DNA of 63,403 nucleotides, the filler included, from Stramenopiles sp. TOSAG23-6 (Eukaryota): assembly GCA_900128565.1 (NCBI GenBank). It is 10 parts of 10 records of this genome, joined end to end, with 100 filler letters (N's around TTAATTAATTAA, not from the genome) between each part and the next. Parts side by side here need not be neighbours in the genome. Positions count along the whole stretch, not along the records: positions 51,395 to 59,821 come from LT636452.1; 9 more parts are not named here. The stretch is one strand, 5' to 3'. Below, one piece after another: positions 10,288 to 61,015 of this stretch. The notes under the pieces are model-generated. The model was not told the origin of the DNA and did not search any database. It was given only the letters and a program-made list of their open reading frames with translations. Positions within the stretch are counted from its first letter, which is position 1. The number at the start of each line of letters is the position of its first letter. A program made the position numbers and the translations under genes.

Positions 10288-13200
10288 ATGGCGGAAATTA
10301 CATTTTTCTGTGACTTGCATGACTTTGCATCAAAGCTGAATAAGGATTGCGAGGATTTGAAACGCCGGGCAGATAATCCAAAACGGGGAAGAAGTGACAA
10401 ACACCAGGTTGGTAAATTTTGCGAAAAACTGAAGACACAAGCCAGGGAAATATTTGAAGAAATAACTTCACTTGAGGCTGCGCTTTCAATGGGAAAGGAA
10501 TCCGAGAAATTTACGGCTGCACCTGTAGCGGCTACCTCTCTTGAACTTTTTAAAAGTAATTGCGAACTAACAGACGCATTGGAGAAGCACCTTTCAGCAT
10601 ACGGCTATACTCCTTCAAATAAACCAAATGTCTTAGACGCATCTCAAAATTTATCATTCAATACATCAGATCAAAAAAATGATGACGGGTCTACTATTCT
10701 TTCGNCTGGNGTTNTTTTTTGAAAACAACGAAGACAAGGAAAATGTATATAATGGGAATGCTTCATTTCAATCTCGACAATATCTTGAAGAGTGCGTAGA
10801 TAATCTAAGTACTGTTGCTCTTCGTGGAGAAGACAGCGAAAAAGACTGTTTCGGAAGTGATATTTCTGTCGTAGGAAATAATAATATTTCAAATGGAGGT
10901 GTTGACTTATCCACTGGACTTTCTGGTTGTGTACAAAATACTCATGAGAACCTAGAAAATACGAATCATAGTATGGATGATGTAGAAAATGTAGATCGGG
11001 TAAATTATTCTCACCATAAAGGATCATCACGTGTAGATGAATATGTCTTCTCACCAAGATCTAATTCTAATGCTTCAATTAATGATGAAAATAAATTAAT
11101 TGGTAATGGCGAAGCACAACCGAGCCATTCGGTCGAAAATGAAATAGACAAAATAGAACAAATCAAAACGTCGTTTTCAATGGAAAACGTGTGTCCTTAT
11201 TCTGGAGATAAACATTCTTCTATGCAAACAGACATGATAGATTCTATGGATAATAATATTGATGACAATGCTCCTGAGCAGCAATGTACCACACCTACGG
11301 CGAACAGGGAGAAAGCAATTCACTCTGAAGTCCCACGACCATGTATGTTTTTTTTTTTCAAATTTCGAATTTTTTTTTTCATACGAAATTTTGTACCTAA
11401 CAAATTTTAGGTTTTTTTTTCAAATATTTTTCCAAAATACATCTGCAATGAAAGTTGGTTTTACTTATCAGGATGAAGAACCACTTACACCTTCTCTCGC
11501 AGATTTCGGTTTTTCTTCTTCAACGTTGACAATGCTTGGGCAAGACAAATTTTGTTCACCGAATGTGAATCAACGAACTAGTGTCCTTTCTACACACTCA
11601 CCTCACAGGAGACTTAGTGAGATGGCTAGTCCAGTGAAAACCCCTGCTGTAAGTAATTTACAACAAAGCGAATGGTCCATTGGTCCACGTACCAATAAAG
11701 CGCTAAGGCATGTAACCCCTGATGTAAAATCAGGCACCTTAAGCAATAGTCGGAATGATTTCACACAGACAACAATGTGTTTACTCAGAGCTCAGCCAAG
11801 ATTTTGTCATTCAGAGGGAGGGCGTTCAGTTTCATCCATTCCAACTCCGACGACACCAACTATGGCACAAATTTGTGGAGTTGCCTCAGGGAATAGAATC
11901 CCAGCGAATCGTAAAGCTGCTATTGAGGGTGTTGCTGCACAAAAATCATTATTTTCCAAAAGTGAAGGGAATGTATGTTTTATTTTTTTTAAATTTTAAA
12001 TTTTGAATTTATTTTTTTTTAGTACGCAATTTTGTGCCTAACGAATTTTACAAAAAAAAAAATTTTTTCACAATGCATGTACACAGCAAAAATCAAAACG
12101 TACGGTCAAATGTATTGAATAATAGTAGAGTAATGCATAAATGCCTCCCCAAAACTCCAATGATTGCTGCAAATTCAATTCCAATATCACCAATGGATAT
12201 AGATGATGTTGATTCACCAATGACACAAATTAGAAAGGATCCTGCGTTAAGTAGAATGTTGCTACCAAAAACTCCAATTTTACCGCCAATGCCAGAAATG
12301 TCTCAGAAATATGAGACTGAAACATCATCGAAAGAATATATAGACAGTATTGTAGAACCGAAAAATATATCTGAAAATATATCTGAAAATATATCTGAAA
12401 ATATATCTGAAAATATATCTGAAAATTCCCTAGTCGAGTCTCAACAAATAGATAAATCTGTCGCCACCCCAGTGAAATCGTCTGTGGTTACAACAAATCA
12501 GGATTTCGTTTCACCACTGTTATCACCATCGGATCACACGCATGATTTTGGTACACGATTAAACTTAGTCAATAATCAAGATAGCGATTCAGATGACGGA
12601 ACTATTGAGACGAAATCAAATAATCAGTTTGTTGGATTTGAGGATGATGATGAAGATATCAGACAACTTAGTGAACAGCTGGAGTCAGATGCTCGTATTG
12701 CTAAGCTGCCGAGACGATCACCACGACTTTTAAAAAAAGCATCGCAAATGAAAGTATCTTTTATGTCACCGAAACCTTCAGAGATGAAAATGGATGACGG
12801 TTCTCCTTTGGACACTTCAAAATGTACTCCTTCGCCTGTACAGAAATTACCTCGGCGATCTCCCCGTCTCTGTCGTAAAAATGCGGGGAACACTCCAAAG
12901 GCTACACGGAGAACTCCTCTATCTATTCACACATCTGAAAGTAGCAAGAAAATAAAAAAATGGCCGAAATCACCACGACTGCGCGCGAGAGCACAAGCAG
13001 AAGCTCTCGCAGAAAAAGAAGCACAAGAAGAAAAGGAACAAAGATGCAATACTTCAACGACTGACACACTGGAGAGAGTTAGTAAAGAGGAATTTTCCGG
13101 CGGTCCTAATTATTTGAAAGCTCAATTTACCCTGGAGAGTATCAATGAGGTAATTGATAGGATCAATGCTCATGGCGGCACTGTGTTTTCGACAGAATTG

Positions 13201-13684: not shown

Positions 13685-14567
13685 TTAATCATTCATATTT
13701 AGAACAGGAGCACTTTCCAATGGTAATATACTCTGACATATTGGGCACTTATGGTCCCTATTCGAGTCGCGAGCATTCTTTGCAAGTATGCAGTGTGAAA
13801 AAAAAATTTATATTAAAAATTTGTTAGGTACGGAATTTGATACAAAAAAAAATTGAAATTCAATTTTGAAAACGTACGTTCGTTCACAGTGTGTGTGCAG
13901 GGAAACTTTGCATTTTTTATTCACACATTTGAATGTATCACATACAAAATAATTACATATGACACATTCTGGACATTCAAATTCTTCCAATAGATCCTGG
14001 AGCTCTAGCAAACTACGAACGCCAAGAGTAAAACAATTATTTTCTACTCTAGAATTCTCAATCCAACCGCCCTTGGTAAGATCCCGAACTAATTTGTTCA
14101 CACGTTCGACAGAAGGAGGTCGATTTTGATCACATGATTTAGTAACTTGTTGAAGAACACGGATATTGACAACATCAACTTCGTTGATTGTACCAGACTT
14201 CTGGATAATCAACTGTACCAAACATTTGAAGAATTCTAATTGCCACTGTTCTAATTGAGTTGACCATTCTGCAAAATTATCTTTTTCTTTATTTACCAAG
14301 CACCAAAAGAGTGTATCGTCACGTTCGTGTGTCATTTTCTCCACCTTCATCTTTACCATATTTAATGTTACGTTAACACGAGTTAGACAAGGATCCAACG
14401 CTTCATCGAGATTTTCAATGTTTTCTTTGCTGTATTGATCAGATATTTCCTTAAACGCCGTCTTCAACTGACCATCACTCATAAAGCGTCTCAGCATGAA
14501 TTCCTGTATTATTGCGCAATGCACATTTGTAGACTCATCAAGCAATTTTTGAGTCGCCTNNNNACAT
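13685..14567 (-). CDS. NSE1: Nse1-like SMC5/6 subunit (winged helix + RING); start approximate because of Ns
   Basis: FTLGVRSLLEL motif and RING CVIC...HTHC...CPIC, completed only after intron removal. Confidence 0.75.
13788..13877 (-). other. Family intron, GT-AT (90 nt)
   Basis: AC|GTACGT...CCGTACCTAAC...CACACTGCAT|A; restores the terminal CPIC of the RING. Confidence 0.8.
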
Positions 14568-15687: not shown

Positions 15688-17087
15688 TTAACGTTTCTTA
15701 ATATCAGCTGATAAAACTATTTGTAATAAACATGCTAACTCAGTTGGATGGGATTCGCCAGTAATGCTGTATACATTAGGAGTTGAACATTTATTATCAC
15801 TGGGGTTTTCGGATTTTTCGGATTGTTCGGATGTACTTATTTCTGATACAACTTCTGTGACAACGTCCTCCAAATCCCCTGTATTTTTTAGTACAACAAT
15901 CGGCCAATTCATTTGAATAAATTTATATATGATATCTTTAGCCCCATCATAGTCATCACCGCCAATGACGAGGACCAAACGCTTTCTCGGACCATTTGTA
16001 GAAGAAGAAGGAGATATATTGTGAAAATTTAAAAATAAAAAAATCGTTAGGCGCAAAATTTGGTGCGAAAAATAAATTAGGTAAAAAGTTCATGTTGAAA
16101 ATGTACATGAGAGCTTCTGAATCACTTTGAAGAAAACTTCGCAGTACTTCAAAGGATTTGTTTCATTTACAAGTATTTCGTGGCTTAAAACTCCTTTGCT
16201 TGTACTTTGTGCGGTTGCATTTTCTTTCCGCACAAGCCCAAGGATAGGAACCTTATGTTTCGATGATACTTCCTTATATGCATTTTCTGCGTTTACAAAT
16301 GTTTTGCTAATAATATTGATTCGGCGCAATTGATGGTGGGCTCCTTTACTATTTGATAGTGTTTCCATCATAGCAACAGAAGACCAGCTATTACGCATAC
16401 CATCACTAATGATAATACCATCACAATATTTTGAAACAGAAATTATGCCTCGTACCATAAACTTTCGAAGAACTGTTTTTGTCTTGCGACTAGAGTCTAG
16501 ACCAATCATTGGAGACTTTCCAAGAACAACTATTACAGGGTTCGGCGGCTGATAACCGTCCAAATTAAGGTCCTTAACAAAAGTATCGAACTTCTGCGCA
16601 TCATCTAATTTCAGTTGAAGACAGCATGAATCTAATATTGGTACAAATGGTTGTTCTAATTTACCTTCACTATTGCCGGGAGATACGTGGGTAACATCAG
16701 TCTCGGATGAATTTTTGAGTGGCCTATCATAACTATTCACTTTGGGTTTTGTAATCATACCATTTGTATTGTTTTGGAGCTTTTTTAACCTTTTCAGTTT
16801 TTGCCGTTTTGGGGCTTGTAATGGTTTCTTAGATTTAATAAATGTTTCTGATTTTTCAGGGAGATGTTTTGATGGTGTAGTGTCTTTAATATGTTGCCCC
16901 TCGTCACCTTTTATAGTAACTTTATGAAGAATTATTTCACTTGAGATAGGAAGATCAGTGGATGCTTTTGGGTCTTTTGGTGCTGCAGCCATTTCTGCTT
17001 CTGCCACTTTCACTGTTGCCTTTTCCTTTGCATGTCCCTCACTAGCTACCTCTGCTTTTGCTTCTGCTTTTGCTTCTGCTTTTGCTT
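15688..17087 (-). CDS. SLOG/LSDAT (TRPM N-terminal-like) domain protein, 5' truncated
   Basis: PVIVVLG, LVLVIGGDD and WPIVVLKNTG motifs across two exons. Confidence 0.5.
16014..16106 (-). other. Family intron, GT-AT (93 nt)
   Basis: AT|GTACAT...TGCGCCTAAC...CACAATATAT|CT; joins QKLS-SPSS. Confidence 0.75.
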
Positions 17088-23719: not shown

Positions 23720-25652
23720 ATGGGCGCGAAAGACAAACAAGAAGCTTTCAAGAGTTATGCTAAATCGGCGAATGCAGATAATAGTAAAGGACAAAATGAT
23801 CTTGGTGAATACTATTTAGATGGGACGCAAGCCACATTCGAGTACGAAGTTGAGGAAAGTGAAAATGATCGTATGTGGGTGGGTGAAATCTGTGAATTAG
23901 ACTCAGGTAAGATGTTTAGTATTCATGATGGAGAGAATACGATAGGATCTAGCCCTGATAATGATATATGTTTATCGGATCCCAGTGTTAGTCGAACTCA
24001 CGCTACCATAGATATTGACCTTACGTCTGGATTATTCCTGTTTAAAGATCTGAAAAGTAAAATTGGTTCTTCCATTGGTACAACGCTTACAAGTCTTTCT
24101 CGCGCTACTCCTCATCGTATGATACCTATTCCAACAAATGCATTTTTCAAAATTGGATGTGTTGTCCTACGTATAAGCTGTTTTTACCAAAGAGTCCTTA
24201 ATTTTTTCAAAAAATATAACCCCGATAAAGTTATTAATGTTCCTAAAATTGTCGAAAAGTACGCAGATCGTGAGAAAGAACTATTTGAGAATCTCTCTCA
24301 GCGATACCCTAATGCCCATATGCGGGTGGGTGAAATCTGTGAATTAGACTCAGGTAACGTGTTTATTATTCATGATGGAGTGAATACGATAGGATCTAGC
24401 CCTGATAATGATATATGTTTATCGGATCCCAGTGTTAGTCGAACTCACGCTACCATAGATATTGACCTTACGTCTGGATTATTCCTGTTTAAAGATCTGA
24501 AAAGTAAAATTGGTTCTTCCATTGGTACAACGCTTACAAGTCTTTCTCGCGCTACTCCTCATCGTATGATACCTATTCCAACAAATGCATTTTTCAAAAT
24601 TGGATGTGTTGTCCTACGTATAAGCTGTTTTTACCAAAGAGTCCTTAATTTTTTCAAAAAATATAACCCCGATAAAGTTATTAATGTTCCTAAAATTGTC
24701 GAAAAGTACGCAGATCGTGAGAAAGAACTATTTGAGATTCTCTCTCAGCGATATCCTGAGTCTTTACCAGAAGTATTAAATCCCGTACCTAATTCCTTAC
24801 GTAATATAAATGACGTGGAAAAAGCTGAACAGAACCCTAATTCTGCAAATGTATGTTTTAATTTTTTTTCAATTTTTTGTCTAATTTTTTTTTTCGTACG
24901 AAATTTTGTACTTAACGATTTTTTTTTTAAAATATTTTTCCAAAATATATGACAATTCTATTCAGCAAAATATGTCTCATTCTAGTATGTCGAAACCAAC
25001 GAAATCTTCACCTCGTATGTATGTTTTATTTTTTTTTTAACCAAAATTTAGCTAAATATTTTTCATACGAAATTTCGTACCTAACATTTTTTTTTTTTTT
25101 TTAGAAAAAAAAATTTTTGAAATATTTTTCCAAAATGTATGAGGAATGCTGCAGATATTGAACGCGAAATGCTTGCAAAATATGCTCCAAAACAAAACCA
25201 TACAACAACATCTTCTTCTGCTGCTGCTGCTGCTGATAGGTCCTACAGTACTAAATCGGCTAATTCCGGATATAGTGATGCACAATTCTATCTTGGTAAT
25301 TGTTATTATAATGGTAATGGTGTTGCTGAAGACAAAAAAGAAGCTTTCAAGTTGTTTACTAAATCGGCTAATGCTGGTAATAGTGAAGGACAAAACAGTA
25401 GTACGCCTGGTTTTAGTTTTGGTGCTCCAGCAAAGTCTGATGACGAGTCGAAAAAGAGTAGTATGCCTGGTTTTAGTTTTGGTGCTAATAGTACTGCACC
25501 TGCAGCAACTCCAGCCGCTGCACCATCAGTCGGAGGATTTCAATTTGGGGCTACTCCAGCAACTACTGCCACACCAGTAACAACAACGGCTGCTACCTCA
25601 TCAAACGCGTTTACATTTGGTGCTAATAGTNCTACAGCTGCACCAGCGACTG
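23720..25652 (+). CDS. Mosaic protein: SEL1 fragment, 2x FHA unit, SEL1, FG-repeat tail (2 family introns; runs into gap)
   Basis: IGSSPDNDICLSDPSVSRTHA (FHA) twice; AQFYLGNCYYNGNGV (SEL1); GFSFGA repeats. Confidence 0.65.
23873..24757 (+). repeat. Near-identical 447-bp tandem duplication (FHA + helical domain)
   Basis: Units start at 23873 and 24320. Confidence 0.9.
24851..24950 (+). other. Family intron, GT-AT (100 nt)
   Basis: AT|GTATGT...GTACTTAAC...CCAAAATATAT|G; next exon is open. Confidence 0.75.
25019..25140 (+). other. Family intron, GT-AT (122 nt)
   Basis: AT|GTATGT...core...CCAAAATGTAT|G; joins SPR-MRNAAD. Confidence 0.75.
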
Positions 25653-32851: not shown

Positions 32852-34210
32852 TTAAATAAACTTATAATCAGCCATTTCTGATAATAAGACGTCGTCAATT
32901 TCTACTAACAAATTATAATCCTTATTTTGTATATGTTCTCTTTCATGAACGTGACTATTAGGACTACTTACGTTATTCAAATCAAAGAAATCATTTGAAT
33001 AAACATGTATTGTGAAAAAATATTTAAAAAAAAAATCGTTAGGTACAAAATTTACTATGAAAAAAATTCGAAATTGAAAAAAAAAAAAAAAACGTACATT
33101 ACTCTCGGAATTTTGTTCAGAAGAATGATGTACAGTTTTTTTAATTACAGGAGGTTGTATCATTTGAGATGGTTGGATTTGATGCAAATGACTTGTACTA
33201 AAATTTGCTATTTGTTTCATGGATTTTGCCATAGTCGATTGATCGATTTGCATCAGAGAATTACTCCATTCTGTCATATCACTTTCTCCAATATTTGTAA
33301 ACATGCTATCAAATGAAGGCATTGCATTATTTTCCTGGTGATCTGTCGTATACGACGGAACATTTTCACTCCAATTAAAATCAAAGTTCATATCATATTG
33401 CATTGTATTTCCATTTGTCGTTCCATTTGTTGGATTCCACACTAGATTTTCATGAGTAATATTTGGTGAACAATTTTTTGCTTTTCTCCCCAAAAAATTC
33501 AATGGACTATAATTATTAGTGCGTTCAAGAGTAATATTTGGTGAGCATTTTTTTACTTTTTTCCCCAAAAAATTCAATGGAATATTGCTCTTTGCCAAAG
33601 TTAACATATCTACATTTAGACGACCCTTCGAGTTTTCTAGTTGTTTTTTTTTCTTGCAAATTGGTTTGATGTGATTTATTGTTTTTCTTGGTTTTGACGA
33701 AGTAACTCTTTTTTGCGATGTTGTACTTTTCATCTTTTTGGTTTTCAGAATATTATCTCCTTTCTTGATCTTCTTTCTAGATTTGTTGAAAAGAACATAA
33801 ATTGTGAAAAAAAAAAAAAGTTTGAAATTTGTTAGGTACAAAATTTCGTACTAAAAAAAAATAAATTTGAAATTCATAATGGAAAAACGTACTGTTTTGG
33901 CAGCCGCAGTTGCTATCAAAGCTCTCTTTTTCTCATTTGCTGTGACAACGTGTGATTTTCTACGATCGAGTGAGGGATGCTTTTCTAGTTTGAGAGTTTT
34001 TTTTAATTCTTCCTTCAACCGGGATTTTTCTTGACGTTGACGTTTGCTACGATATGTATTTTGGAAAAATATTTCAAAAAAAAAAAAAGTAAAATTTGTT
34101 AGGTACAAAATTTCGTACGAAAAAAAAAACGAATTTGAAAAAAAAAAATAAAACATACATACGCTTCGCATTTATCTGTCTGACGACAACGAGTTTCAAA
34201 TTGATTTGAT
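32852..34210 (-). CDS. Hypothetical basic protein with 3 family introns, 5' truncated
   Basis: Exons join in frame after removal of the GT-AT elements. Confidence 0.55.
33005..33097 (-). other. Family intron, GT-AT (93 nt, stop-free 3n)
   Basis: AT|GTACGT...GTACCTAAC...CACAATACAT|G. Confidence 0.75.
33797..33892 (-). other. Family intron, GT-AT (96 nt)
   Basis: CA|GTACGT...core...CACAATTTAT|G; joins AAKT-VLFNK. Confidence 0.75.
34054..34162 (-). other. Family intron, GT-AT (boundaries ambiguous by a few nt)
   Basis: GTATGTATGT...core...CCAAAATACAT. Confidence 0.65.
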
Positions 34211-34467: not shown

Positions 34468-35436
34468 CAATCCATTGAATTGGAGAATGTGAATTTTCAT
34501 TCGTTAAAACTGATTCACAAGTATGGTACATTGAAGATCGATGCCATTCTTTCATTTTTGTTTGGTACTCCTTATCAACTCTATCCATATATTGTAGCAC
34601 AGATTTTATTTCATTCAAACGTACCTCAGGTGGACATATATTGTAAAAAAATGTTGACATTCAAAATTGGTTTAAAAAAAATCGTTAGGTACAAAATTTC
34701 GTATGAAAAAAAAATTTGAAATTCATAATGAAAATGTACATTTCACTGATAAATGAATGGATACGACTCCAATATATTTTGGAGGTAAGTCGTCAATATT
34801 ATCAGTAGGAATTTCAATCACACGTCCTATAGCACATCCACTATCTGGTATATTTTCTATTGTACTATCAAAAGTATCGAAATTGTGAAATGGAATTTTA
34901 CTGCAAACGGCGACGCGTAGCTCAGAATTTGATAAATTTGGTATTCCAAAAGTATCAGGTAAAAAGTGACATTTTGAACTGGGTGCTAAAGATATATATT
35001 TATAACCAGCATTTTGTATCCTGCTTAATTCTGGAGTGGTAGTATTATCCTTTGGATTTTTCATAGGAATTTCTTGAAGGAGAATAACATCTGGTTTATA
35101 ATTGTGTACTATATTCAGAACATGATCAATATTATGTGGAGTATCATCATTCACAGTTTCACTTACTTCTCTCCAAAAATGAATGTTGAAAGTCATGACA
35201 CGTAGTAAAGAAGAATCCTTTACAAATTTAATCCCGTCGTGTTTTGGTATTTTGTTATTTAAACCAATTCTTTGCGCTTTGTCAATATCTTTGAAATATG
35301 AAGAGTATATAAGTTGTTTCGATTCCTTTCCAAAGGGAAACTTCACGCCTTCGCGGAGTCTTCGTTCAAGTTCAGAGACATAGCTACTGGATACTACCAG
35401 ATTATCACACGTATCTGCGATTTCGTTCTCTATCAT
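34468..35436 (-). CDS. Endonuclease/exonuclease/phosphatase (EEP) family protein, 3' end unclear
   Basis: LRVMTFNIH, PDVILLQE and VVSIHL motifs. Confidence 0.8.
34636..34739 (-). other. Family intron, GT-AT (104 nt)
   Basis: AT|GTACAT...core...TACAATATAT|G; joins HLSVK-CPPEVRLNE. Confidence 0.8.
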
Positions 35437-36677: not shown

Positions 36678-39600
36678 TCATTTTACACGAAAGGTAGGAA
36701 CAGTACTTGCTCTACTAACTTTACTAATTTTTACACTCATATGCGGCTTCTTTTGATTTGGTTTTGCTGCTTTTGTTTCTTGTTGCTCATCTTCTGTAAC
36801 AAGCGTATTCACATCCGTGCCTTTCTTGTCAGTTGTAACAAGAGTATTCACATCCGTGCCTTTCTTGTCAGTTGTAACAAGAGTATTCACATCCGTGTCT
36901 TTCTTGTCAGTATACGATTGAAGATTATTTCTATTTGCTTTGTTTGTTTCTAAACTAATTGAAGATTTTTCTCGCATTAACATTTTCAACGTATCATGAT
37001 GACCACTGGGTAATCCATCACCCAATACATCGTGAGGTATAAATTGTGCCTGTTTTCGGCTACTTCGAAAGAAATTCGAGTAATCCAAATGTTCACTGTC
37101 TTTAGATAAATTGTGAATATCATGTATTTTGGGATCAAAGTCGGAACTTATTAAATGTTGAGGTTTTTCTTCTAAAATATCTATTCCAAACATTAATGAA
37201 TCCGAAAGTGATTTATGGCGTTTTCTTACCGACTCTAGCCATCCTGGAACATCTTCAATAGAGTATGAAACCAAACATTGTATGAGATGTACAACAAATA
37301 CAAATGCTATAAAAGCAATAAATCTTTGTTCATTTGTTGTAAATATGGGAGTTGTAAAAGCAAAGAGAGTCCCGTTTGTTATTATTGCTGTTTTTGTTAC
37401 GATAACCATATAATTATAAAATGCGCCAATATCTTGTGCTCCCTCCGGTATTGGGCGAGCAATTAAATAACATAGCTTGTTTGAATCAATGTACTGTTCT
37501 ACTACAGTAGAAAGTCGCGCAAGTAATGGTGTTAACGGAAATGCAGCGACAAATAAAGTAACATATCCATATTGTATAACTACTTCACTGTAATCTTCAC
37601 CTAAGTCGTATGGGTCTAGTGCTGACTCTTCTTCAACGATTGATAATTCTACTGGCTTTGAAGATGTTATACTTTTAACTTTAAGAGTTTCATTGTGCAT
37701 GTTTTCAACGGTTTTAGTCTCCTTTAAAGTATTGTTTTCCTGATCATTTACGTCACGTGTTGCGCCATCTATTGGAACGCTTGACGATTTTTCTTCGCGC
37801 AATGCTAAATATCTATCAATCCATGGGAGTAATAACTCTATTGTATTTAAAATTGTAATAGAAGAAAGAAAAATGATGCCTAACTGAAACATTACTTCTT
37901 GTTCACAATCACCTTCATATTCCTCAAATTCTGAACTAAAATGCCTACCAGATGGCCAATTATTCTTATTTTTATCATATGAGTCACCTGGATAAATATT
38001 TTTCATCTCTGACTTTAGCAAAGGACATTCAGACTCATCCCAGGATAGTCCCCACTGAATACTCTTACACGCACCATAACATCCTGTGTCGAAACGCTTA
38101 AAAATGGCAAGATAAAAGAATGAATTAAAATTGTTAATACATCTGAATAACATCAGCTTATCAGCTAAATGGTTATTGTATGCAGTATTTGTTTGCCAGT
38201 TTTCCATTTCTGTAAGTTTTGTAGCAAGCCATGTATAAATGACATTGAAGATCTGAATTTGTATGAAATTTAAGACACCAGCAATGGCAGCACCTGTCAT
38301 TCGAAATTTCTCTAGTGACATGAGATAGGTACGGAAAATCATGATTGTTGCTACGGTAGCCACTACACATCCAAGCATTGTCATCACTAAACATGCACTC
38401 ATAACTAATGTACGTCTTCGACGACGAGAAGAATAATGTAATGTATGTTTACCTTGCCACTGCCCTTCTCGTATTGTACCCAAAGAAGAGGACTCAACTA
38501 AATCACCCCAAAATTGAGGGCGGTCGACTTCCCTGCTCTGAAAGTCAGCCGTACCCCATCGAGTGGCTAAACTTTGTTGTTTTTGTTTCCAAAATGCTAA
38601 CATTAACGGTGACCAAATTGCAATAAAAACAGAAAAAACACACGTAGGAATTCCTCTGTAATTTCCAGGATCAAAAGCAAACCTTTCGAGCATTTGCCAG
38701 ATAAATATACAGGTTCCTACTAAAGAGGGTATCCAGAGAGAATTTGTATAATACATTAGAAATGCAAAGTAAAAAGCAATTTGTTCACCAAAGTAATTTC
38801 TAATTTTTCCAAGAGGAACTCTAGATGATTTTGCTGCATTCCAACTACACCAGGAGTTTGCTAACACTTGTAAGACGTCGTGTATTGTGAAAAATATGTT
38901 TTAAGTTTGAAATTCGTTAGGTACGAAAAACCTATAGCATTTGGATTTTATACGAAAAACACATACGTTTGAACTTAATAATGAATACGTACTTGTTCAT
39001 GTAAAGCAAAACAGTTTTTCATAATACCAATTTCTAAAAGTTTATCAATATTTAATGTCTTTCTCATGTGATGATTCATCAGTTTTAATCTATCCACAGT
39101 GCGAAATAATGATGTATTTTGGAAAAATATTTCAAAAAAAAATCGTTAGGTAAAAATTTCGTACGAAAAATAAATTCGAAAATGAAAAAAAAATAAAATG
39201 TACATGTAGCTCCCTCACCAGTAGAATATCGTTGATATAAAGAAAATATTTCAGGGCGTTGATCATAACTGACATATGCATGACAACCTTTATGTGCATC
39301 ATTATCCACATCAATAGATTTGTCAAATTGCAATTTATAACCCTCAGCCGTTGCCGCAGCAAGTAAATCCTGTTCATCTGAGCGCACAATAATAAATATT
39401 TGTTTCCTGTTACAACCCCAATGAATAAGCGTATCCAATCCACAAAACTCATTAATTAATTTCGAAATGAATAAAGCACGAAGAATATGAAAATCTCGAT
39501 TATCAGCGACATAATCTTCACTCCCTCTCATTTCAATCCAAAACAGTCTAAAATATTCTTTTTCAAGAATGATTGACAGTGGTTTTATACTTGAATGTGG

Positions 39601-40703: not shown

Positions 40704-41966
40704 ATGACAAGAATGAATAATATGTTTTCAAAATCATTTTTACATCTCAAGGATGACAAGATGAAGCACCGTCGTTCTGTAAACTACAGTAAGCAACATG
40801 TGGCTCTTTTACTGTGTGTTTTGCAATTTATCAATATTATAATTTGGTATACGTGTATACGTAAAGGAGTTCACAATGTGAAAAAGGGTTTACGTTATTC
40901 TTCGCCTATGACACTACCGGTCAAGGAATATACACCCAAAGATGAATATTTTATGCAGCATGATACACGTATACGAGATTATCGATTAGTGGAACACTCT
41001 GGATTAGGCCATTTTGCAGTTCATGGTGATTCAAATGAATGTCATTCAGGTAAATGGAAGTTTTGTTATATTAAGGGAAACACACGACTCGTCAAAGCTG
41101 AACTTTCAACTATTGGTTTTATTAATGACGCCGCAATATCACCAAATGTATCGGAAAGTATTGGTGACTATGAAATAATATGGACCCTCGCTGACATTGC
41201 AGATTCAAACAACTATTTCCATTATCTTAATTTGAAATCTTATGTACTTTTTTCCACCCACAAACTTTTAGTTTTTTTTTTTTTTTTGGTAAAAAAATTT
41301 CATACCTAACAAATTTCAAATTTCTGAAATATGTTTTCTTTGGCATCAAAAGATTAATCATTTTCCAGGAATGTATGAAATAGGTAATAAATTTCATTTA
41401 AACAAAAACCTAAGAGAAGCACAAGGAAAATATGGGACTTTAATTTATAATTTTTTTCCTATTTCATATCAAATGCCAACTGATTATGAACAGTTAAAAG
41501 CTGTTTTCTTGGAATCTGAAAAAAAACAAATGTGGATTACGAAAAATGGTTCAAAAGATAGAGGGGAAGGGATACAAATGATTCAGAATATCTCAGAAGT
41601 AGACAAAACTTCAAGTACTACAGTAGTACAAAAATACATTCAATACCCTTATTTATTATATTCATACAAATTCACACTACGATGTTACATCCTTCTCACA
41701 TCGATAAATCCTCTACGATTGCATCTTTCTCGAATTGGATTTGCTCATCTTGCCACAGAAAAATACAATTCTGATCCTACATTTTACAATCATAAATATA
41801 TGCATCTAACAAACCCAGATATAAATGGTGACCGGGAGCCGTATAAATCAAATCCAAGGCCTTGGTATTGGAGTCTTCAAGAAGTCTTGCACTATATGAA
41901 AAAACATAGTTCACTTGAACCTCAAGATGTTTTTGATTCAATATCCAAAGTGGCACTAAAAACTAT
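40704..41966 (+). CDS. Tubulin-tyrosine ligase-like (TTLL) protein, C-terminus unresolved
   Basis: YQKINHFPGM (after splice), WITK...RGEGI, VVQKYI.YP, KFTLRCYILL and HLTN motifs. Confidence 0.85.
41244..41346 (+). other. Family intron, GT-AT (103 nt)
   Basis: AT|GTACTT...CATACCTAAC...TTTGGCAT|CAA; restores the TTLL motif Y-QKINHFPG. Confidence 0.85.
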
Positions 41967-42072
41967 GTACGTTTTATTTTTTTCAATTTTTAGTCTAATT
42001 TTTTTTTCGTACGAAATTTTGTACCTAACAATTTTTTTTAGATTTTTTTTTAAATATTTTTCCAAAATACAT
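41967..42072 (+). other. Family intron (3' end 42070 or 42072)
   Basis: AT|GTACGT...core...CCAAAATACAT. Confidence 0.65.
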
Positions 42073-42709
42073 TAAGTATACTCAATGCTCGTGTGTCTGC
42101 TGCTCCAGTGAAGCCGACTTCTGTTTTATCGTCACTTGTTGAAGAATTCGAAAAAGCTGTAGAAAAAGCTGCTCATTTTGATGTATATCAAAAAGGTAAT
42201 TTACGATTGATCAAATCACGAAAACGAGATATTTCAGAAATGGACTGTCTGTCAAATTTGATATCAAAAATAGTTACAGATATCGTAAATTGTCGAAAAC
42301 AAAAGACAAAATTTAGTTATATTTCGTTGTCAGAAAAATGCAATGTTGTTTTAGCTCAAATAAAGAGGAGCAATGTCATTTCACGATTTTCCGGAATCAG
42401 CGATATAATAAGGCAAATAAGTCGGTTAGCTTTCAAGTATAAAAGATTATTAGAAATGAGTTTCCTTGCTGCTTCATTTTTAGGTGAATCGGGAGAAATG
42501 TATATAGATGATAGTTTGACGGTACATGTACGTTTTCACAAAAACAAAAAAAATCAAATTTAATTCTTTTCATACGAAATTTTGTACCTAACGATTTTTT
42601 TTTAAATATTTTCATAATACATGATGGGGGTTTGAATAATAATGTTTTAATGAAATCCACGCCTCAAAGTCAAAGTCGAATGTCTAGTCCTGGCTACGAT
42701 AAAAGGAAT
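42073..42709 (+). CDS. Hypothetical exons (continuation of TTLL or a different gene)
   Basis: Open frame LSILNARVSAAP...LTVH-DGGLNN; next family intron starts at 42710 and runs into the gap. Confidence 0.45.
42528..42622 (+). other. Family intron, GT-AT (95 nt)
   Basis: AT|GTACGT...core...CATAATACAT|G. Confidence 0.75.
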
Positions 42710-51393: not shown

Positions 51394-53068
51394 NTTTTTA
51401 TTTTTTGTATTTTTTGTATTTTTTGTATTTTTTGTATTTTTTGTATTTTTTGTATTTTTTTCTGTTTCAGTAGGGTTAGGGTTTGCATGTGCAAATAATC
51501 GATCAGCTAAAATTCGACCAGCAGCAATTGCAACAGGGGTTAACTCCCATTGACCACATACATCACCCAATGCGTATACATTTTTTGTACCTAAACAATT
51601 TGCATATTGATCAACTTCTATATGTCCATGTAGAGTACAAAAATAGTTCAAAGTATTTTGAAAATTGTTAGGTACAAAAAAAAAATTTTGAAAAAAAAAA
51701 AAATGTTTAGGTACAAAATTTCGTACGAAAAAAACATTTGAAAAAAAAATTTGAAATTTTTTTTGAAAATTTGAAATTGAAACACATACATAATCAGTGA
51801 GAGAAATATTTGCAGATGTAACATCAAGTGGTTGAGTCATTGGTTTTCGACCAATTGCCCAGATAATACAATCAACATCCAAAGGATCATATTTTTCATT
51901 ATTTACAAAAACACGAAATTCAGATTTTTTTTCATTATTTTTTTCATTTTTTTTTTCATTATTTTTTTCATTATTTTTTTCATGATCAAAACGTTCAATA
52001 CTTGAGACACCATTTGAATCACGCATAATAGAAACACCACTTTTTTCTAATCCTTCTTCTACAGCTCTTGACAACATGTATCGTAAAAAATATTTTTTTT
52101 TAATTGTTAGGTATGAAATTTCAAAAAAAAAAAAAATTTCAAAAAAAATTTTAAATTTTTTTTTAAATTATTAGGTACAAAATTTCGTATGAAAAAAAAA
52201 ATTGAAAAAAAAAAAAAAAATCATAATGAAAACAAACATATCATCAAAAGAACGTAAAACACCAGATTTTCTAATTATTAATGATGTTTCAGCTCCAAGA
52301 GCACTTAAAACACCAGCTAACTCAACAGCAATATATCCAGCACCAACAATAGCTACTTTTTTAGGCATTTCATTTAATTCAAAAAAACCATCACTAGTGA
52401 TTCCATGTATTGTAAAAAAAAATTTCAAACATTTTCAAAAAAAAATTGTTAGGTACAAAATTTCGTACGAAAAAAAAAAATTCAAAAAAAAATTTTAAAA
52501 AAATTAACCCTAACCCTAATTATTGTTAAAGACGTACATGCCGTGCTCCAGGAATTTCATTTGGTATTTCTGGATATCCACCAACAGCAATAAGAATATG
52601 ATCTGCAGTATATTCGCCATCACCATCCATTGATACTTTATTTGGAGATAAGAAAGTAGCTTCACCTCGAAGTAGTTCAATACCAGATGTGTCTAGATTT
52701 CGTTCATAAATTCCATTTAAACGTTTTATATATGCATCTCTTCTTTTTTTCATATCTTTCCAATTGAATTGTACATCTGGAACATCAAATCCAAGCTGAG
52801 CGGAATCATGTAATAACTCAGCAAATGAAGCAGCGTTCCACATGACTTTTTTAGGAACACAACCCACATTTACACACGTTCCACCCATCACAGTCTTTTC
52901 AATTAAACCAACACGAGCTCCATGATCAGCCGCACGTCGGGCAGAAGCCATACCACCACTTCCACCACCAATCACTAAATATTCAAAATGTCGATTAGGT
53001 AATGAACTAACACAACGATAAGATTGCTTTGATAGAAGTATTCGACGCATTGAAGAGAATGTGTACAT
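51394..53068 (-). CDS. GSR: Glutathione reductase (3 family introns; 3' end lost in gap)
   Basis: [27 protein letters not shown] and [11 protein letters not shown]; splices restore [21 protein letters not shown] and TDY-GHIEVD. Confidence 0.93.
51628..51789 (-). other. Family intron, GT-AT (162 nt, two core copies, stop-free 3n)
   Basis: AT|GTATGT...CTCTACAT|GGA. Confidence 0.85.
52076..52237 (-). other. Family intron, GT-AT (162 nt, two core copies)
   Basis: AT|GTTTGT...CGATACAT|G. Confidence 0.85.
52405..52537 (-). other. Family intron, GT-AT (133 nt)
   Basis: AT|GTACGT...core...TACAATACAT|GGA. Confidence 0.87.
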
Positions 53069-53318: not shown

Positions 53319-53546
53319 ACAATCTTAACTTGAATCATTTACTAGATGCCACAATGGCATCATTATACCACAATGGTAAGGATGTAACCACTATGGATAC
53401 TCCTATGTTTCAGTGAAATTGTTTGTGTACTATTGTTATTGCTAGACCTCCATGTGAACCTCATAGAATAACTACAGGACAATCTCAACTTGAACAATCT
53501 ACTAGATGCCACAATGGCATCATAATACCACAATGGTAAGAATGTA
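53319..53546 (+). repeat. Two ~68-bp direct repeats (period 160), each with twin hairpins
   Basis: ...ACTAGATGCCACAATGGCATCA-TA-TACCACAATGGTAAG at 53319 and 53479. Confidence 0.8.
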
Positions 53547-53599
53547 GTAATGAGAACAGTTCTGTATCACCTCACAGTTCTATTGACAGACATTTCAAA

Positions 53600-56281: not shown

Positions 56282-56301
56282 AAATTATAAATAGTATTAT
56301 T

Positions 56302-59300
56302 TTATTTTTTTTCATTTTGTAGTATTTCATGTAATATATCTTTTGCTTGAAGTAAATTTTGTAATAAATGACTTTTATCATCCTCTATAATAAATGCCAT
56401 TCCAATATCAGGAAAAACATCACGTAATGGAGTATAATATTTCATACCAAGATTTTGTGTTTTTTTTCTTTTCTCCATTAATCCTCTTAAAAATAAATTT
56501 CGTGTTTTATTTTTTTTCTCTGTATTTCTTTTCACTTTTTCATAACATATTGGAATATCCTTGTGTAATTTACCTTGTAAAAAATATTGCCGCATTTCAA
56601 ACGTTGTAAATATACTGTGAAAAAATATTTCAAAAAATTTTAAATTTTTTTGTTAGGTACAAAATTTCGTATGAAAACAACAAAGAAAGGTTAAGAAAAA
56701 TTAATTTCAAAGACATACATGGACCTTTTTCAATATGTTCATCATTTAAATACCACCAAAATGCATTTCTTTTATTTATCATACTAGGGTTAGGGATATG
56801 ATTTTCTGCAATTTGAAAGGATATTAGAAGAGAGCTTAATACATTACGCAATGTTGTATTTTTTGTATTTTGTATTGATCTAGTAGGGTTAGGGTTTGAT
56901 GTTGTATGTAATGTTTTTTTTCCCATAGTATATTGAGATGCAATAAAGTTATTTCGATGTTGTAATTTTCGTAAATGTAATTCAAGTTTTTTATTTTCCA
57001 TTTTTATATTTTTATGTTTTGTTTCATCATTTGTTGTATCATTTATTATATATTTCATATTGTTTGTATTTTCTGGTAAATGCCATCGAACTTCATTTGT
57101 ATCTTTGTTATAATAGTATTGTCTATGTGAAGAATCAAATGCTATACACCACATTTCATTATTATTATTATCATTATTATTATAATCATTATTATTATTA
57201 TCATTGTTATCATTATTATTATTATCAATAGTATTATTATTATTATTATCAGAAATAATATTTTGAAATTTTTTTGTATTATATTTATATCTTTTTACTT
57301 TTTTAGATTTTACATTTTTATTTCGTGTGAGTAGTCTTTGATGTATTTTATGTATAGATTGTTGATTGGCGACATCAATAATATTGACTTTATCATTACA
57401 ATCACTTTTAAATTCATCATTTTGATTATGTATTTGTTTTTTATATTCAACTATTGTATCAATTTCATATTTATTTGATTTATTTGATTCATTTGATATT
57501 GTATCAATTTCATATTTATTTGATTTTTTTGATTCATTTGATATTGTATCAATTTCATATTTATTTGATTCATTTGATATTGTATCAATTTCATATTTAT
57601 TTGATTCATTTGATATTTTTTCTTGAGTTTGACATTGTAAATGACGTTTTGGATTATTAGTTTTTGTTTCAAGTACAAAATATTGGTATAAACAATCCGA
57701 TTTCATTTCATCATTTAATTCTCTTTGTTTTTCATTATTTCGTGTTGTAAACCATTGTTTATGTTTTTGTTCAAAATATTCAATATATTCAACAATTTGA
57801 TGTTGTACAAAACAATTTGTATCGGAACCTATATTTAATAACCATTTTAATACTTGAATATAAGACGATGTTTCATTATTTAGATTATTCTCTGAAATTG
57901 CTTTTTTATAACATATATCTAAAACAGTCTCGCCATGACACGTGGCACAATCTTTAGAAATACACCATTTTTTTATAGTATTTTTGGGGGTATTTGGGTT
58001 TAGTGCTGCAGTACTATCTGTAGAAGTCTCACATAATGTTGTACATGACTCGTATAAAAGTTTTGCAATATTTAAAAATCGATTTCCACCAGATACATGT
58101 ATTGTGAAACAATATTTTTTTTTTGAAAAAAAATTGTTAGGTACAAAATTTCGTACGAAAATATTTTTTTAAAAAAAAATTAAAAAAAATAAAAACATAC
58201 AGCTATATGTAATGGTGTTTCATATTTTCCATTCCGAGCTTCAGTATCCGCACCATGACCAATAAGAAGCTGAATTAATTTCAAATTACCTGAAATAATG
58301 GCAACATGAAGTGAAGTTGTCCAATAAGGTGGTAATCGTATATTGATATACTGTTGAAAAATATTTCAAGTTTTTTTTTTAAATGTTTGTTAGGTACAAA
58401 ATTTCGTACGAAAAAAAAAATTATAATTTTAAAAAAAATATTTTGATGAAAATGTACATTAATCCATTCACTCTATAAATTTGATTTTTAAATTTCACTT
58501 TTTCATTTAAAATTGGTTTTAATTTTGAATATTCTTGATCAAGACGACCACTAGGATTATCGTGGCATTGTAATAATAAACGAATTTTATCTACATCTTG
58601 TTTTTTTGCACGGGTACATATATTATGAAATAATATTAAAAAAAATATTTTTTTAAATGTTAGGTACAAAATTTCGTACGAAAAAAAAAATTTGAAATTT
58701 CAAAAAAAAAATTTTAAATTTTCAATGAAAACGTACAATATACCATCATATCTTGTGTATATCTATGGAGTAAACCTGCTCGTAGTCCACCTTTAACCAT
58801 TTGATTTTGAATTTTAATGGCACAACTATTTAAAGTTTGATATAAATTTCGACATTTTTTATATCTGAAAAGTCTTTGTAATTGTATCAAATAATATTTT
58901 TTTCTATATTCCTCTATTTTATATACTATAGTTTGAGATAATATTTCAAAAATTTTAAATTTTTGTTAGATATGAAATTTTCTACGAAAAAAAATTAAAA
59001 AAAATTTTAAGTTTTTAATGTTTTAAGTTTTGTTAGGTACAAAATTTCGTACGAAAAAAATAAAATGAAAAAAAAATTCATACCAAAAACATACATACAA
59101 ATTGACGTACAAAACGTTGAATAACAAAAATCGATTGTTTTGCACGTTTATATCGCAACAGTTTTGTCCATTTTCTTATATTTTTTTGTACCAAAAGACA
59201 AGAAGATAATCGTTTAATTGCATCATATACTGTGAAAAAAATATTTCAAAATAAAATATTTTTTCGTTAGGTACAAAATTTCGTACGAAAACCAAAAAAA

Positions 59301-59441
59301 AAAAAATTCAAAATTCAAAAAATTGAAATGAAAACGTATATATTTTGTTACTTTTGTAAACCACAAATTTGAAATTGAATTAATATGCAAATAATCATGA
59401 ATTTTCAAATTAATGATTTTTCTAGCTGAATATCCTCTTAT
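56302..59441 (-). CDS. IQ-ankyrin-WW-GYF-like multidomain protein with at least 6 family introns
   Basis: IQRFVRQF, TSLHVAI/TPLHIAV, W...D...RQYYYN...VRWHLP and WWYL...GPFTTFEMRQYF motifs; exon phases consistent. Confidence 0.75.
56610..56718 (-). other. Family intron, GT-AT (109 nt)
   Basis: AT|GTATGT...core...CACAGTATAT|TT; restores the GYF motif GPF. Confidence 0.85.
58097..58200 (-). other. Family intron, GT-AT (104 nt)
   Basis: CT|GTATGT...core...CACAATACAT|G; restores ankyrin TPLHIA-V. Confidence 0.85.
58346..58457 (-). other. Family intron, GT-AT (112 nt)
   Basis: AT|GTACAT...core...CAACAGTATAT|C. Confidence 0.8.
58618..58736 (-). other. Family intron, GT-AT (119 nt)
   Basis: TT|GTACGT...core...CATAATATAT|G. 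Confidence 0.8.
58921..59098 (-). other. Family intron, two core copies (boundaries ambiguous)
   Basis: TT|GTATGT...ATAGTATAT|AAA. Confidence 0.6.
59225..59339 (-). other. Family intron with ATACGT 5' end (115 nt)
   Basis: AT|ATACGTTTT...core...CACAGTATAT|G. Confidence 0.55.
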
Positions 59442-59633
59442 ATGTGTTGTAAAAAGATATATCAAATTTGAGTTTTTTTTTGTTAGGTATGAAATTTTGT
59501 ACTGAAAAACCAAAAAAAAAAAAAAAATGTTTAGGTACAAAATTGTGTATGAAAAAAAAATTACCAAAAAAAAAAATTACCAAAAAAAAAAACAAATTTT
59601 TGTTAGGTATAAAATTGTGTACGAAAAAAATAC
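59442..59633 (-). other. Family element with three core copies; flanking frames do not join cleanly
   Basis: Three TACCTAA(A)C cores; ends CAACACAT. Confidence 0.5.
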
Positions 59634-59921
59634 ATTTTTGGTGATAAAATATATCCAAATTCAAAACCATCCTCGACATTATCCGCATTCTGCATACACA
59701 TTTCAACAAAGTCTTGATATTCTTGGATATACGAAATCGAATTCTTTGTAGTACCATTAGGATTAGTTTTTTTTTCATCAGATTTATTTGTACCAAATTC
59801 TGTACCTAACGAATTTTTATTNNNNNNNNNNNNNNNNNNNNNNNNNNNNNNNNNNNNNNNNNNNNTTAATTAATTAANNNNNNNNNNNNNNNNNNNNNNN
59901 NNNNNNNNNNNNNNNNNNNNN

Positions 59922-61015
59922 AGTTAGCTATATCCTCTTGTGGAGATATGTCATCGACAAAGTTAGCTATATCCTCAGTAGTATCGACAGTTATCTTCAT
60001 CATGTCAGATTCGGAATTTATACATGTGTTTTCATCTATCGAACTATTCGCTTCATTATCTAGCGAATTTATTAAAGTGGAAATATCTCTTACGGCAACA
60101 TTGGCAAAAAAAGCCGCAGTTTTAACGGCGTATCCAGACTTTGCATTTTGCTGCTGTCTTTTAAAATTAGAATCTACCTCGCGTATAGTTGCGCGGGATA
60201 TAAGAGNTGTCAGTTGAGATGTTCGGTTAATGTATCTTTTTTCTAATATATCCCATTGACATTTAATTTTGTGTACAACAGATTTCTTAATTTTAGTGCA
60301 GGATTGCAATGAACGAAATAAATTGATTTTTACTTTATCGATATTCGATTCAATACTCACACATTGTTCAGTGTAAGTACGCATTGCATTCTCTAAAAAC
60401 ATAATCTGTTGTTCTATATCTTTGATATAATTCAGTCGGAATTCTTTCATATAGTGCCGATGCACTATAGTCCCTACATCTTCCATAGTCTGTAGACTGT
60501 TGATATTTTCTGTGTGACTTTCCATTGCTGCTTTTGCAGCTGAGGATTTTAAAAGCTTCTCAAGAATTTCACAGCGAAACCTCTCCAATTGTTGCGGTGC
60601 TTCTTCAACTTGAGATAAAAACGATTCATGCTCATCTTCATGCTTATGCATAGGGATACTTCCATGATTAGCATGAAGTGAAGATATTTGAAATTCTATT
60701 CGAAGGAGTCCAGCTTCATGTTTGTGAAAAAATATTTAAAATTTGAAATTCGTTAGGTACGGAATTTTCTATGAAAAAAAAAAGATTTGAAATTAATGAT
60801 GAAAACATACAGCCTTACGGACTCGACTTTCAGCACGACTAACATTTTGTGTTATTTCGTTCAAATCGGTAGTCAAAATATCATCTTCTTCATCACTACT
60901 CTCGTCAATATCTTCAAAATCAAAAGGAATTTCATTTATATCTTGGTTTATATCTTGGTCGGTAACTGGATCTTCAAAATTATTTATATCTTGGTGGGTA
61001 ACTGGATCTTCAAAA
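59922..61015 (-). CDS. Coiled-coil protein internal fragment (contig repeated at 61116-62209 and 62310-63403)
   Basis: Open frame across the intron: ESRVRKA-EAGLLRIEF...MHKHEDE. Confidence 0.6.
60718..60810 (-). other. Family intron, GT-AT (93 nt; copies at 61912-62004 and 63106-63198)
   Basis: CT|GTATGT...CCGTACCTAAC...CACAAACAT|G. Confidence 0.8.

Follow-up and report, generated by a model that had tools for sequence, protein, structure and literature searches.

Introner-like introns of Stramenopiles sp. TOSAG23-6 appear to end regularly in AT instead of AG

The window, that is the whole stretch of 63,403 nucleotides (63.4 kb) of Stramenopiles sp. TOSAG23-6 DNA analysed here (GenBank assembly GCA_900128565.1), carries a repeated family of short introns whose predicted excised interval runs from GT to AT. 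It consists of separate parts (of about 8.4-8.5 kb, then of 1,094 nt) with N44-TTAATTAATTAA-N44 linkers between them (8508-8607, 17088-17187, 25653-25752, 34211-34310, 42761-42860, 51295-51394, 59822-59921, 61016-61115 and 62210-62309), so genes that face each other across a linker are not true neighbours. The draft assembly is of low quality, and Ns are scattered through it. The sequence is eukaryotic and gene-dense with about 35 % G+C, long open reading frames (ORFs) and the standard code, and the encoded proteins include a phosphate transporter, an anoctamin, a choline-transporter-like protein, a BTB-BACK-WD40 protein, TTL and glutathione reductase. For the phosphate transporter, brown algae and a raphidophyte provide the nearest named homologues (52-54 % identity), and one 98 %-identical protein is present in public assemblies. 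The source is taken to be a stramenopile-like protist of marine origin.

Two introns of the family that are central to this study lie in one minus-strand gene (56302..59224) with IQ-like, ankyrin, WW and GPF/GYF-like regions. When the GT..AT intervals of this gene were removed, a single open frame of 768 codons was obtained, which ends at a stop. The first focal intron (56610..56718, minus strand, phase 1) is located between the WW exon and the GPF/GYF-like exon and runs GTATGT...CACAGTATAT; read from 56718 to 56610 it is GTATGTCTTT...TTTTTTCACAGTATAT, followed by the exon TTACAACG, and the ORFs on its two sides (483 and 101 codons) agree in frame. The second (58346..58457, minus strand, phase 2) is located just upstream of the ankyrin exon and runs GTACAT...AACAGTATAT. 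From 58457 to 58346 it reads GTACATTTTC...TTTTTCAACAGTATAT, then exon CAATATACG, and its flanking ORFs (80 and 54 codons) also agree in frame.

An earlier sequence-only reading of this DNA reported that both introns end CAG-TATAT, and both were found to read so at exactly the coordinates it gave. Its further claim, that use of the CAG shifts the frame and that the AT end gives GPF, is correct as long as the GT donor is kept. The computed spliced translation from the GT donor to the AT end gives ...EKGPF|TTFEM... for the intron at 56718 and ...NGLINIRLPPYWTTSLHVA... for that at 58457, and in both the CAG, 5 nt before the AT end, shifts the frame with the GT donor. It is not correct for an AT donor 2 nt upstream, with which the CAG is in frame (see below). 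The ankyrin exon of that reading was recovered by Pfam (Ank, E = 7e-8, on exon 58201-58344), and the WW match in the same gene is weak (E = 4e-5, under the curated cut-off). As to its GYF exon, the half-domains encoded by the focal-gene exons have no match in Pfam or PDB, and the label stays unconfirmed; the AT junction does fit GPF-x4-M-x2-[WY]-x3-G of the GYF motif, which we take to be W-x-Y-x6-11-GPF-x4-M-x2-W-x3-GYF. For the two focal junctions the support is from frame, and homology support was obtained at five other junctions.

The four introns discussed in the sequence-only reading are all copies of one repeated element, which that reading had not seen. When the window was searched with the 18-nt core CGAAATTTTGTACCTAAC at up to 3 mismatches, 28 matches were observed vs 0.05 expected by chance. 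An nhmmer profile made from 18 copies gave 48 hits at E <= 1, and 25 copies with both ends recognisable were curated from these; 22 of the 25 entered the alignment and 24 entered the frame and boundary-shift tests (41244-41346 was handled by hand). Partial copies were excluded (412-350, 29532-29499, 42710-42760 at a part's end, 45270-45320, 51123-51167 and 59784-59820), as were weak opposite-strand echoes of the palindromic core, the composites 59094 and 59633 with uncertain 3' ends, and two duplicate 1,094-nt parts. Copies are cited below by their 5' coordinate where this is sufficient.

The family has at least 25 copies of about 90-160 nt with the pattern AT|GTAYGT...CGTACGAAATTTTGTACCTAAC...YCAMAATAYAT|G, or more fully AT|GTAYGTTTT ... 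TTTTCRTACGAAATTTTGTACCTAAC ... T/A-rich tail ... TTTYCAMAATAYAT|G. Like introners, these are many similar introns at non-homologous positions in unrelated genes (C2H2, anoctamin, TTL, glutathione reductase, FHA/Sel1 and ankyrin-WW genes, among others); all 25 copies are in sense orientation with respect to the host gene, and most genes of the window are interrupted. Their predicted removal restores the coding sequence, as judged by frame and homology, which is likewise a property of introners.

The 5' signal is GTAYGT, with G at +1 in 24/25 copies, T at +2 in 25/25, A at +3 in 24/25 and T at +6 in 25/25; position +5 is G in 20 copies, A in four, T in one and C in none. A CCTAAC, CTTAAC or CCTAAA box is present in every copy, 31-56 nt before the 3' end, and all 22 aligned copies have TAAC. 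The 3' end carries a conserved 12-nt terminal motif of the YCAMAATAYAT type with A at -2 in 25/25 copies, T at -1 in 24/25 and A at -9 in 23/25. Among the features of U2-type introns, the extended 5' GT consensus and a CTRAY-type box as the putative branch site are thus present, and a YAG 3' terminus is absent from all 25 copies. Ordinary GT-AG introns were not seen in the conserved genes examined within the window, in which no exhaustive search for them was made.

The phase of the longest upstream ORF was compared with the frame of the longest downstream ORF after removal of GT...AT, and agreement is expected by chance in 1/3 of cases. This frame test was passed by 21 of 24 copies (binomial p = 6.1e-8). 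When the three copies in the glutathione reductase gene were removed, all three junctions were gapless vs homologues; 40 of 120 hits were aligned and 14 rows listed, two of which, short or aberrant, are lost at junctions two and three. Removal of 5604-5704 rebuilds a C2H2 finger with the exact spacing C-x2-C-x12-H-x3-H, and positions 1-11 of the Pfam zf-C2H2 profile hidden Markov model (HMM) reach the very edge of the exon upstream of 5604. At the anoctamin junctions the Pfam coordinates are only approximately continuous.

Short direct repeats (AT, ATG or CAT) flank most copies, so that GT-AT, TG-TA/CA and AT-AC/AT borders are equivalent within one copy. Since these borders give the same mRNA within one copy, RNA-seq cannot tell them apart. 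They can be compared across copies. The GT-AT placement (shift 0) is the only one common to all 24 copies: 13877 permits shift 0 only, 33892 and 38992 permit no leftward (negative) shift, and 11343, 16106, 39203, 56718 and 58457 permit no rightward (positive) shift. If one rule applies to all copies, that rule is therefore shift 0, under which 22 of 24 copies are GT-AT, 38992 is GT-AC and 59339 is AT-AT. A 3' AG is impossible under every allowed shift in all 24 copies, and the same was found for 41244-41346, for which the shifts were derived by hand. The canonical AT-AC borders of U12-type introns were also considered and rejected, as they are impossible in 6 of 24 copies; 33892, which is preceded by CA, excludes both AT-AC and TG-NA readings. 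On these sequence grounds a working mRNA must lose everything between the G of GT and the T of the last AT, both included, with one AC end and one AT start.

Between the CCTAAC box and the end, AG is absent in 18 of 25 copies. The seven tail AGs lie 31-36 nt (four copies) or 5 nt (three copies) before the end, and in combination with the GT donor they break the frame in six; the exception is 25019, in which an AG 36 nt before the end keeps it. In agreement with the sequence-only reading, the introns at 5604 and 11343 contain a TTTTAG (TTTTTTTTAG and ATTTTAG, respectively) at distances of 31 and 32 nt from their AT ends; it is out of frame, neither distance being a multiple of 3. In such copies TACCTAACGATTTTTTTTAG forms a textbook succession of branch box, pyrimidine tract and AG. 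Scanning to the first AT was rejected as well, since about 4.5 earlier AT dinucleotides are found per tail. As far as frames and homology predict, a functional mRNA cannot arise if the first AG that follows the CCTAAC box is used. The corresponding conclusion of the sequence-only reading, that acceptor choice is not first-AG scanning, thus keeps its support from sequence, frame and homology, but it is weakened by an in-frame AG at 41967 and 59094 and by the in-frame AT...AG of the focal introns. Its wording that AGs are bypassed understates the case: the AGs in the seven tails would have to be passed over, but AT would be the normal end of the whole family and not a property of four odd introns.

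The remaining copies are given here with the lengths of the longest upstream and downstream ORFs in codons. On the plus strand are the copy within the C2H2 zinc finger (5604..5704; 577/240) and those at 11343..11442 (209/184), 11973..12078 (ending CACAATGCAT; 244/410) and 42528..42622 (158/46). In the FHA/Sel1 gene, the copy at 24851..24950 is followed by a 68-nt exon, and the chain from phase 0 through 68 nt to phase 2 is consistent by hand count; the next copy (25019..25140) ends AAAATGTAT and contains an in-frame TTTAG 36 nt before the end. The TTL gene has two copies. The first (41244..41346) is degenerate, GTACTT...TTTGGCAT, and the exon from 41347 begins at position 9 of the TTL HMM; a 3' end at GAAATAT was rejected for this copy because it is out of frame, and GGCAT was taken instead. 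In the second (41967..42079), the consensus AT (42072) is out of frame and the in-frame ends are 42070 (AC), 42073 (TT), 42076 (AG) and 42079 (AT). The exon downstream of this second copy has no TTL match, and the homology to TTL does not go beyond the edge of the exon.

On the minus strand, the copy at 13788..13877 has no flanking direct repeat and GT-AT as its sole placement (226/33). Others are found at 16014..16106 (326/107), 33005..33097 (251/50), 33797..33892 (preceded by CA and not AT, with shifts 0 to +2 only; 93/314), 34054..34158 (13 nt after a likely ATG start), and 34636..34739 in an Exo_endo_phos gene (250/105). The anoctamin gene carries the GT-AC copy (38880..38992, with shifts 0 and +1 only; 51/733) and a second copy at 39112..39203 (413/44). 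The glutathione reductase gene carries two two-core composites (51628..51789 and 52076..52237, the latter with 5' GTTTGT and the junction LRSFDD|MLSRAV) and a copy with a TTAGGGTTAGGG insert (52405..52537). One copy lies within an ankyrin repeat, TPLHIA|VSGG (58097..58200; 55/488), and is preceded by CT, which makes AT-AC impossible; that at 58618..58736 is preceded by TT (76/64). The multi-core composite at 58923..59094 has an uncertain 3' end: TATAG| (58926) and TATAGTAT| (58923) are in frame and the terminal AT (58921) is out of frame. The AT-AT copy (59225..59339; 79/48) starts ATACGT and ends CACAGTATAT. The last copy (60718..60810; 68/170) ends CACAAACAT and is repeated identically at 61912-62004 and 63106-63198 (spacing 1,194 nt) because the 1,094-nt part in which it lies occurs three times.

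We consider it probable that these introns form an introner-like family in which the 5' site and branch box are normal and the 3' end is an A-T that may derive from an AT(G) target duplication, and that their removal is of the U2 type. The major (U2-type) spliceosome would remove the element from the RNA through GTAYGT and the CCTAAC branch site; it is favoured because the best-conserved parts of the element are those that a major spliceosome needs. GTATGT and the CTAAC box are yeast-type U2 signals. The second step would be aimed at the element's own terminal A-T and not at an AG, and the 3' site may be set by the terminal motif, perhaps by pairing of the intron ends (+1, +2 and +5 to +7 with -1, -2 and -5 to -7), and not by scanning. 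On insertion, the AT(G) target would be duplicated, so that the exon keeps one copy (AT|GT...) and the other becomes the last two intron bases (...AT|G); the duplicated target would also supply the G of the 5' GT. A cut after the duplicated AT would then bring back the original message with no footprint. In the exon flanks, A is found at -2 in 21/25 copies, T at -1 in 22/25, AT in 19/25 and G at +1 in 16/25. Most copies pair at the intron-end positions named above. When the intron ends of 22 copies were paired in register 0, 74 % of cells paired, and the first and last bases were G-U in 20 copies, A-U in one and G-C in one.

A wider proposal, that the predominant and perhaps only intron class of this genome ends A-T (A-Y) and that the second-step rule has shifted genome-wide from AG, can be put forward tentatively; all 25 recognised introns, in about 58 kb, fit it. 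The contact between the first and last G would in that case be replaced by an ordinary base pair, and pairing between the two intron ends would define the site. The branch box, poly-T and AG of TACCTAACGATTTTTTTTAG, 31 nt upstream, would be ignored, and a single invading element with AT(G) duplication may have forced or exploited the change.

Several observations weigh against the U2-type, A-T-directed removal proposed above and against its origin by target duplication. Three of the 24 copies failed the frame test (24851, 34158 and 41967). The failure at 24851 is followed by the 68-nt exon and is consistent by phase chaining; that at 34158 lies four codons past the likely ATG and is frame-compatible only through this ATG, which is weak support; 41967 is a true exception with an in-frame AG nearby. 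Six copies have no upstream AT and their exon dinucleotide differs from the last two intron bases, so the duplication model needs a later exon change there. The flanking repeat shows no locus-specific extension, and target duplication and insertion-site preference cannot be told apart here; the same caveat, for a repeat that is identical at every site, is made by Gozashti et al. For the paired intron ends, covariation does not exceed that in shuffles, and sliding the register by 2 nt gives almost as much pairing, so that the end complementarity may be a mere remnant of a terminal inverted repeat (TIR). RNAalifold gave essentially no consensus structure (-0.23 kcal/mol) apart from a 5-bp pairing, itself marginal, between GUAYG and YGUAC beside the branch box. 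Searches for spliced proteins of the same species gave none for the WW exon or the last exon of the focal gene, and none among the longer proteins for the exon of glutathione reductase. The tails contain fewer AGs than shuffles do (7 vs 15.2 +/- 3.0, P = 0.0035), which could mean that AG is still recognised and selected against; since the copies share ancestry, this test is not independent and is weak. At 41967 and 59094, the frame is lost with the consensus AT and kept with the AG, as it is with the AT 3 nt after that AG. In the copies at 56718, 58457 and 59339, read by hand, a donor AT located 2 nt before the GT is in frame when combined with the CAG and leaves one extra codon.

These in-frame AGs can be taken as the true acceptors of the three CAGTATAT copies (56718, 58457 and 59339), and possibly of 41967 and 59094, in which case the bypass in the focal introns would be only apparent. 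We consider this quite unlikely. It would make in-frame AT...AG introns of the three CAGTATAT copies and GT...AG introns of the other two, in which the consensus AT fails, and an AG that is under-represented in the tails may still be recognised. However, the same interval has to be removed in the 18 of 25 copies in which no AG is available, ATGTAYGT as a 5' context is not known among AT-type donors, and the TTTTAG of 5604 destroys the zinc finger with any nearby donor. GPF would moreover become GPIF, off the spacing of the GYF motif given above. Within 56718, 58457 and 59339 themselves, the AT...AG alternative is disfavoured only by the other family copies and by this motif. In its favour, AT-AG is the commonest non-canonical U12-type pair, with 20/66 in Table 2 of PMC1557818. 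Removal by a minor (U12-like or transformed) spliceosome, with the 3' site placed by a short, constant distance to a nearby branch A (e.g. -9, TTTYCAM) and a loose terminal dinucleotide, would account for both kinds of skipped AG, the CAG 5 nt upstream being too close and the TTTTAG 31 nt upstream irrelevant. The family's A-T ends with one A-C and one AT-AT copy, and its near-invariant A at -9, are of the kind expected, as GT-AT, AT-AT and AT-AN ends are documented, with GT-AT spliced by the U12 machinery (Sheth et al. 2006, PMC1557818), and a Physarum preprint likewise describes GT-AT and AT-AT as tolerated by this machinery. The 5' sequence GTATGTTT differs from the Physarum GTATCTTT at +5 only, and CCTAAC resembles the U12 box CCTTAAC. 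Yet it is at +5 that C is found in none of 25 copies, so the defining TATCC/TATCT 5' motif ([G/A]TATCCTT; TATCTTT in the Physarum variant) is absent. GTATGT is instead the classic yeast U2-type site, and the invariant CTAAC, located 31-56 nt before the end, fits the U2-type CTRAY box perfectly, whereas the -9 region (TTYCAM) is little like TTCCTTRAC. No minor small nuclear RNA (U11, U12, U4atac or U6atac) was seen in the window, and no Rfam family reached its gathering score there. A minor-spliceosome origin of the AT ends is on this evidence unlikely, although it is the chief alternative.

Excision without a spliceosome, either structure-guided from RNA as in euglenids or from DNA as with the internal eliminated sequences (IESs) of ciliates, would be guided by the inverted and direct repeats. 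The partly complementary ends and the AT direct repeat of 19/25 copies can be read in this way, such repeats being described for euglenid non-conventional and other transposon-derived introns in a review (PMC11282704), and a change from intron to IES is an idea discussed in a Mesodinium preprint. The borders of the present family are nevertheless uniform, its best-conserved parts are GTAYGT and CTAAC, which are requirements of a spliceosome, and the terminal helix is without covariation. The ORFs are long and use the standard code, the homologues indicate a stramenopile-like protist and not a ciliate, and the ends are not TA-bounded as in Paramecium IESs. Removal of this kind is very improbable, and U2-type removal of an introner-like element remains the reading that we prefer.

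Transposon-derived introns with relaxed splice rules are already known from introners, Fritillaria, Amoebophrya, Polarella, euglenids and Physarum, as described in the texts cited here, and GT-AT is known as a rare pair. The introners of Micromonas, Aureococcus, Chrysochromulina, Florenciella, dinoflagellates and others (Gozashti et al. 2022/2025) are described, like the present family, as near-identical short sense introns of unrelated genes in aquatic hosts, with the frame restored by excision and with border direct repeats; their short terminal inverted repeats may have a counterpart in the partly complementary ends found here. In the Chrysochromulina type, the element brings its own 5' site and the 3' site comes from the target duplication (Gozashti et al.). 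The families that these texts describe end AG or AC, in contrast to the family here, for which the end is AT in 23 of 25 curated copies. The 2025 survey, in its account of family selection, treats non-AG/AC 3' ends as unfamiliar and retains such families only with transcript or RNA-seq alignment support. The introns of Fritillaria borealis derived from miniature inverted-repeat transposable elements (AG-AC and AG-AT) are similar in their AC/AT ends and possibly in their transposon origin, of which they keep traces of TIRs and target-site duplications (TSDs) (PMC11282704; PMC13326754). They dominate a compact marine genome, with a duplicated exon motif forming the 3' end (PMC11282704; PMC13326754), and their odd ends are reported to be read by divergent U2AF paralogues. 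However, as described there, they lack the 5' GT and have diverse families and borders, whereas a single family with GTAYGT (GT in 24/25) and CTAAC is found here in a stramenopile-type protist.

Non-canonical U12-type introns, including the expanded Physarum set, share GT-AT and AT-AT pairs with the family, and AG is described as dispensable there as it would be here. The Physarum introns are also described as having inverted-repeat ends and a proposed transposon origin. U12-type introns have the TATCC/TATCT motif and a branch box 10-12 nt from the end, in contrast to the family, which lacks the motif and has its best box 31-56 nt away. With the non-conventional introns of euglenids (PMC11282704), it shares non-AG ends, end complementarity and TSD-like border repeats, and euglenid intermediate introns mix conventional and non-conventional features (PMC11282704; PMC4770533). 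The euglenid borders are described as variable and without conserved spliceosomal signals, unlike the uniform borders and signals here, where pairing is without covariation. Animal U2-type GT-AT introns, such as that of DGCR2, combine an optimal U2-type 5' site with an AT terminus and are conserved between species (PMC1557818). These are isolated single introns in that account, whereas the present introns form a repeated family that dominates a genome region. In a literature search, no introner family with a regular AT end and canonical 5' and branch signals was found, and the survey's supplementary tables might list one; splice sites are not a subject of the two papers on single-cell genomes of marine stramenopiles (MAST). 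What we did not find in print is an introner-like family in which a regular AT end is combined with canonical 5' and branch signals.

Some members of the family are irregular. Composites with two to four tandem cores, in which the CGAAATTTTGTACCTAAC region is duplicated, are found at 51628-51789, 52076-52237, 58923-59094 and 59440-59633 (minus strand); two of them measure exactly 162 nt, and the reading frame is open through one of these, 51789-51628. A 5' half-copy, GTTCGTTTTATTTTTTTCAAATTCG...CGTACGAAATTTCGTAT, lies at 45270-45320 (plus strand) in frame within an unbroken BTB-BACK-WD40 ORF of 750 codons, between BTB and BACK. It has neither the CCTAAC box nor the AT-end motif and may be an exonised truncated copy. 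The parts at 59922-61015, 61116-62209 and 62310-63403 are identical over their 1,094 nt (0 differences), and are either a triplicated record or a collapsed repeat written three times. Each contains one family intron and a 289-codon frame that matches nothing in Pfam. Telomere-like TTAGGGTTAGGG / CCCTAACCCTA(A) blocks are present at 623, 1686, 48915, 51471, 52508, 56785 and 56884. The block at 48915 is upstream of a gene, that at 52508 is inside a family intron, and those at 51471 (glutathione reductase gene) and at 56785 and 56884 (focal gene) are coding and encode NPNP.

Other features lie in or near the genes discussed. The frame of the glutathione reductase gene loses homology after RLFAHA and continues to the end of its part (51395-51470, minus strand); this stretch may be a further insert or an intron of another kind. 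Within the large exon of the focal gene (57440-57620, minus strand), tandem repeats encode SNESNKYEIDTI units together with long Asn/Asp runs. Next to that gene, the 3 kb at 53200-56300 (plus strand) hold only short overlapping ORFs in alternating frames and end with positions 1-34 of a UCH (ubiquitin hydrolase) domain (about 56093-56195), which breaks off shortly before the 3' end of the minus-strand focal gene. This region may be a decayed gene, or may reflect sequencing frameshifts or an unrecognised intron type.

The family was also looked for outside the assembly. An exact 20-mer of the core gave 0 matches in viral contigs and 0 in metagenome contigs. One exact match of a core 20-mer, in a contig of a Bacteroidales metagenome-assembled genome (contig L001, 6177-6206), was rejected as a chance match, as it has no intron ends and about 1 such match is expected in 596 Gb. 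Among 80 glutathione reductase loci from metagenomes (best identity 60 %), none carried the family. As no more than a lead, seawater metagenomes may contain parts of the sequence, and two metatranscriptome runs shared 5-6 % of the sampled words, from which nothing is concluded.

AG is the terminus of almost every spliceosomal intron. Known exceptions on a large scale (Fritillaria, Amoebophrya, euglenids and the minor introns of Physarum) are few, and each is informative on how a spliceosome chooses its sites. The present family would be a clean case in which only the last base is changed, from AG to AT, and a textbook 5' site and branch box are kept. Its copies form a natural series, with no AG, with an AG 5 nt upstream, with poly-T and an AG 31 nt upstream, with an AC end and with an AT start, so that the choice of the 3' site is isolated as a question that can be tested directly. 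A target-site duplication may here dictate a non-canonical splice site. Introner surveys that use annotated introns or distrust non-AG/AC ends likely miss such families, and gene predictors would mis-call most genes of this lineage. Judged from its sequence, the choice of intron ends in Stramenopiles sp. TOSAG23-6 seems to follow an unusual rule.

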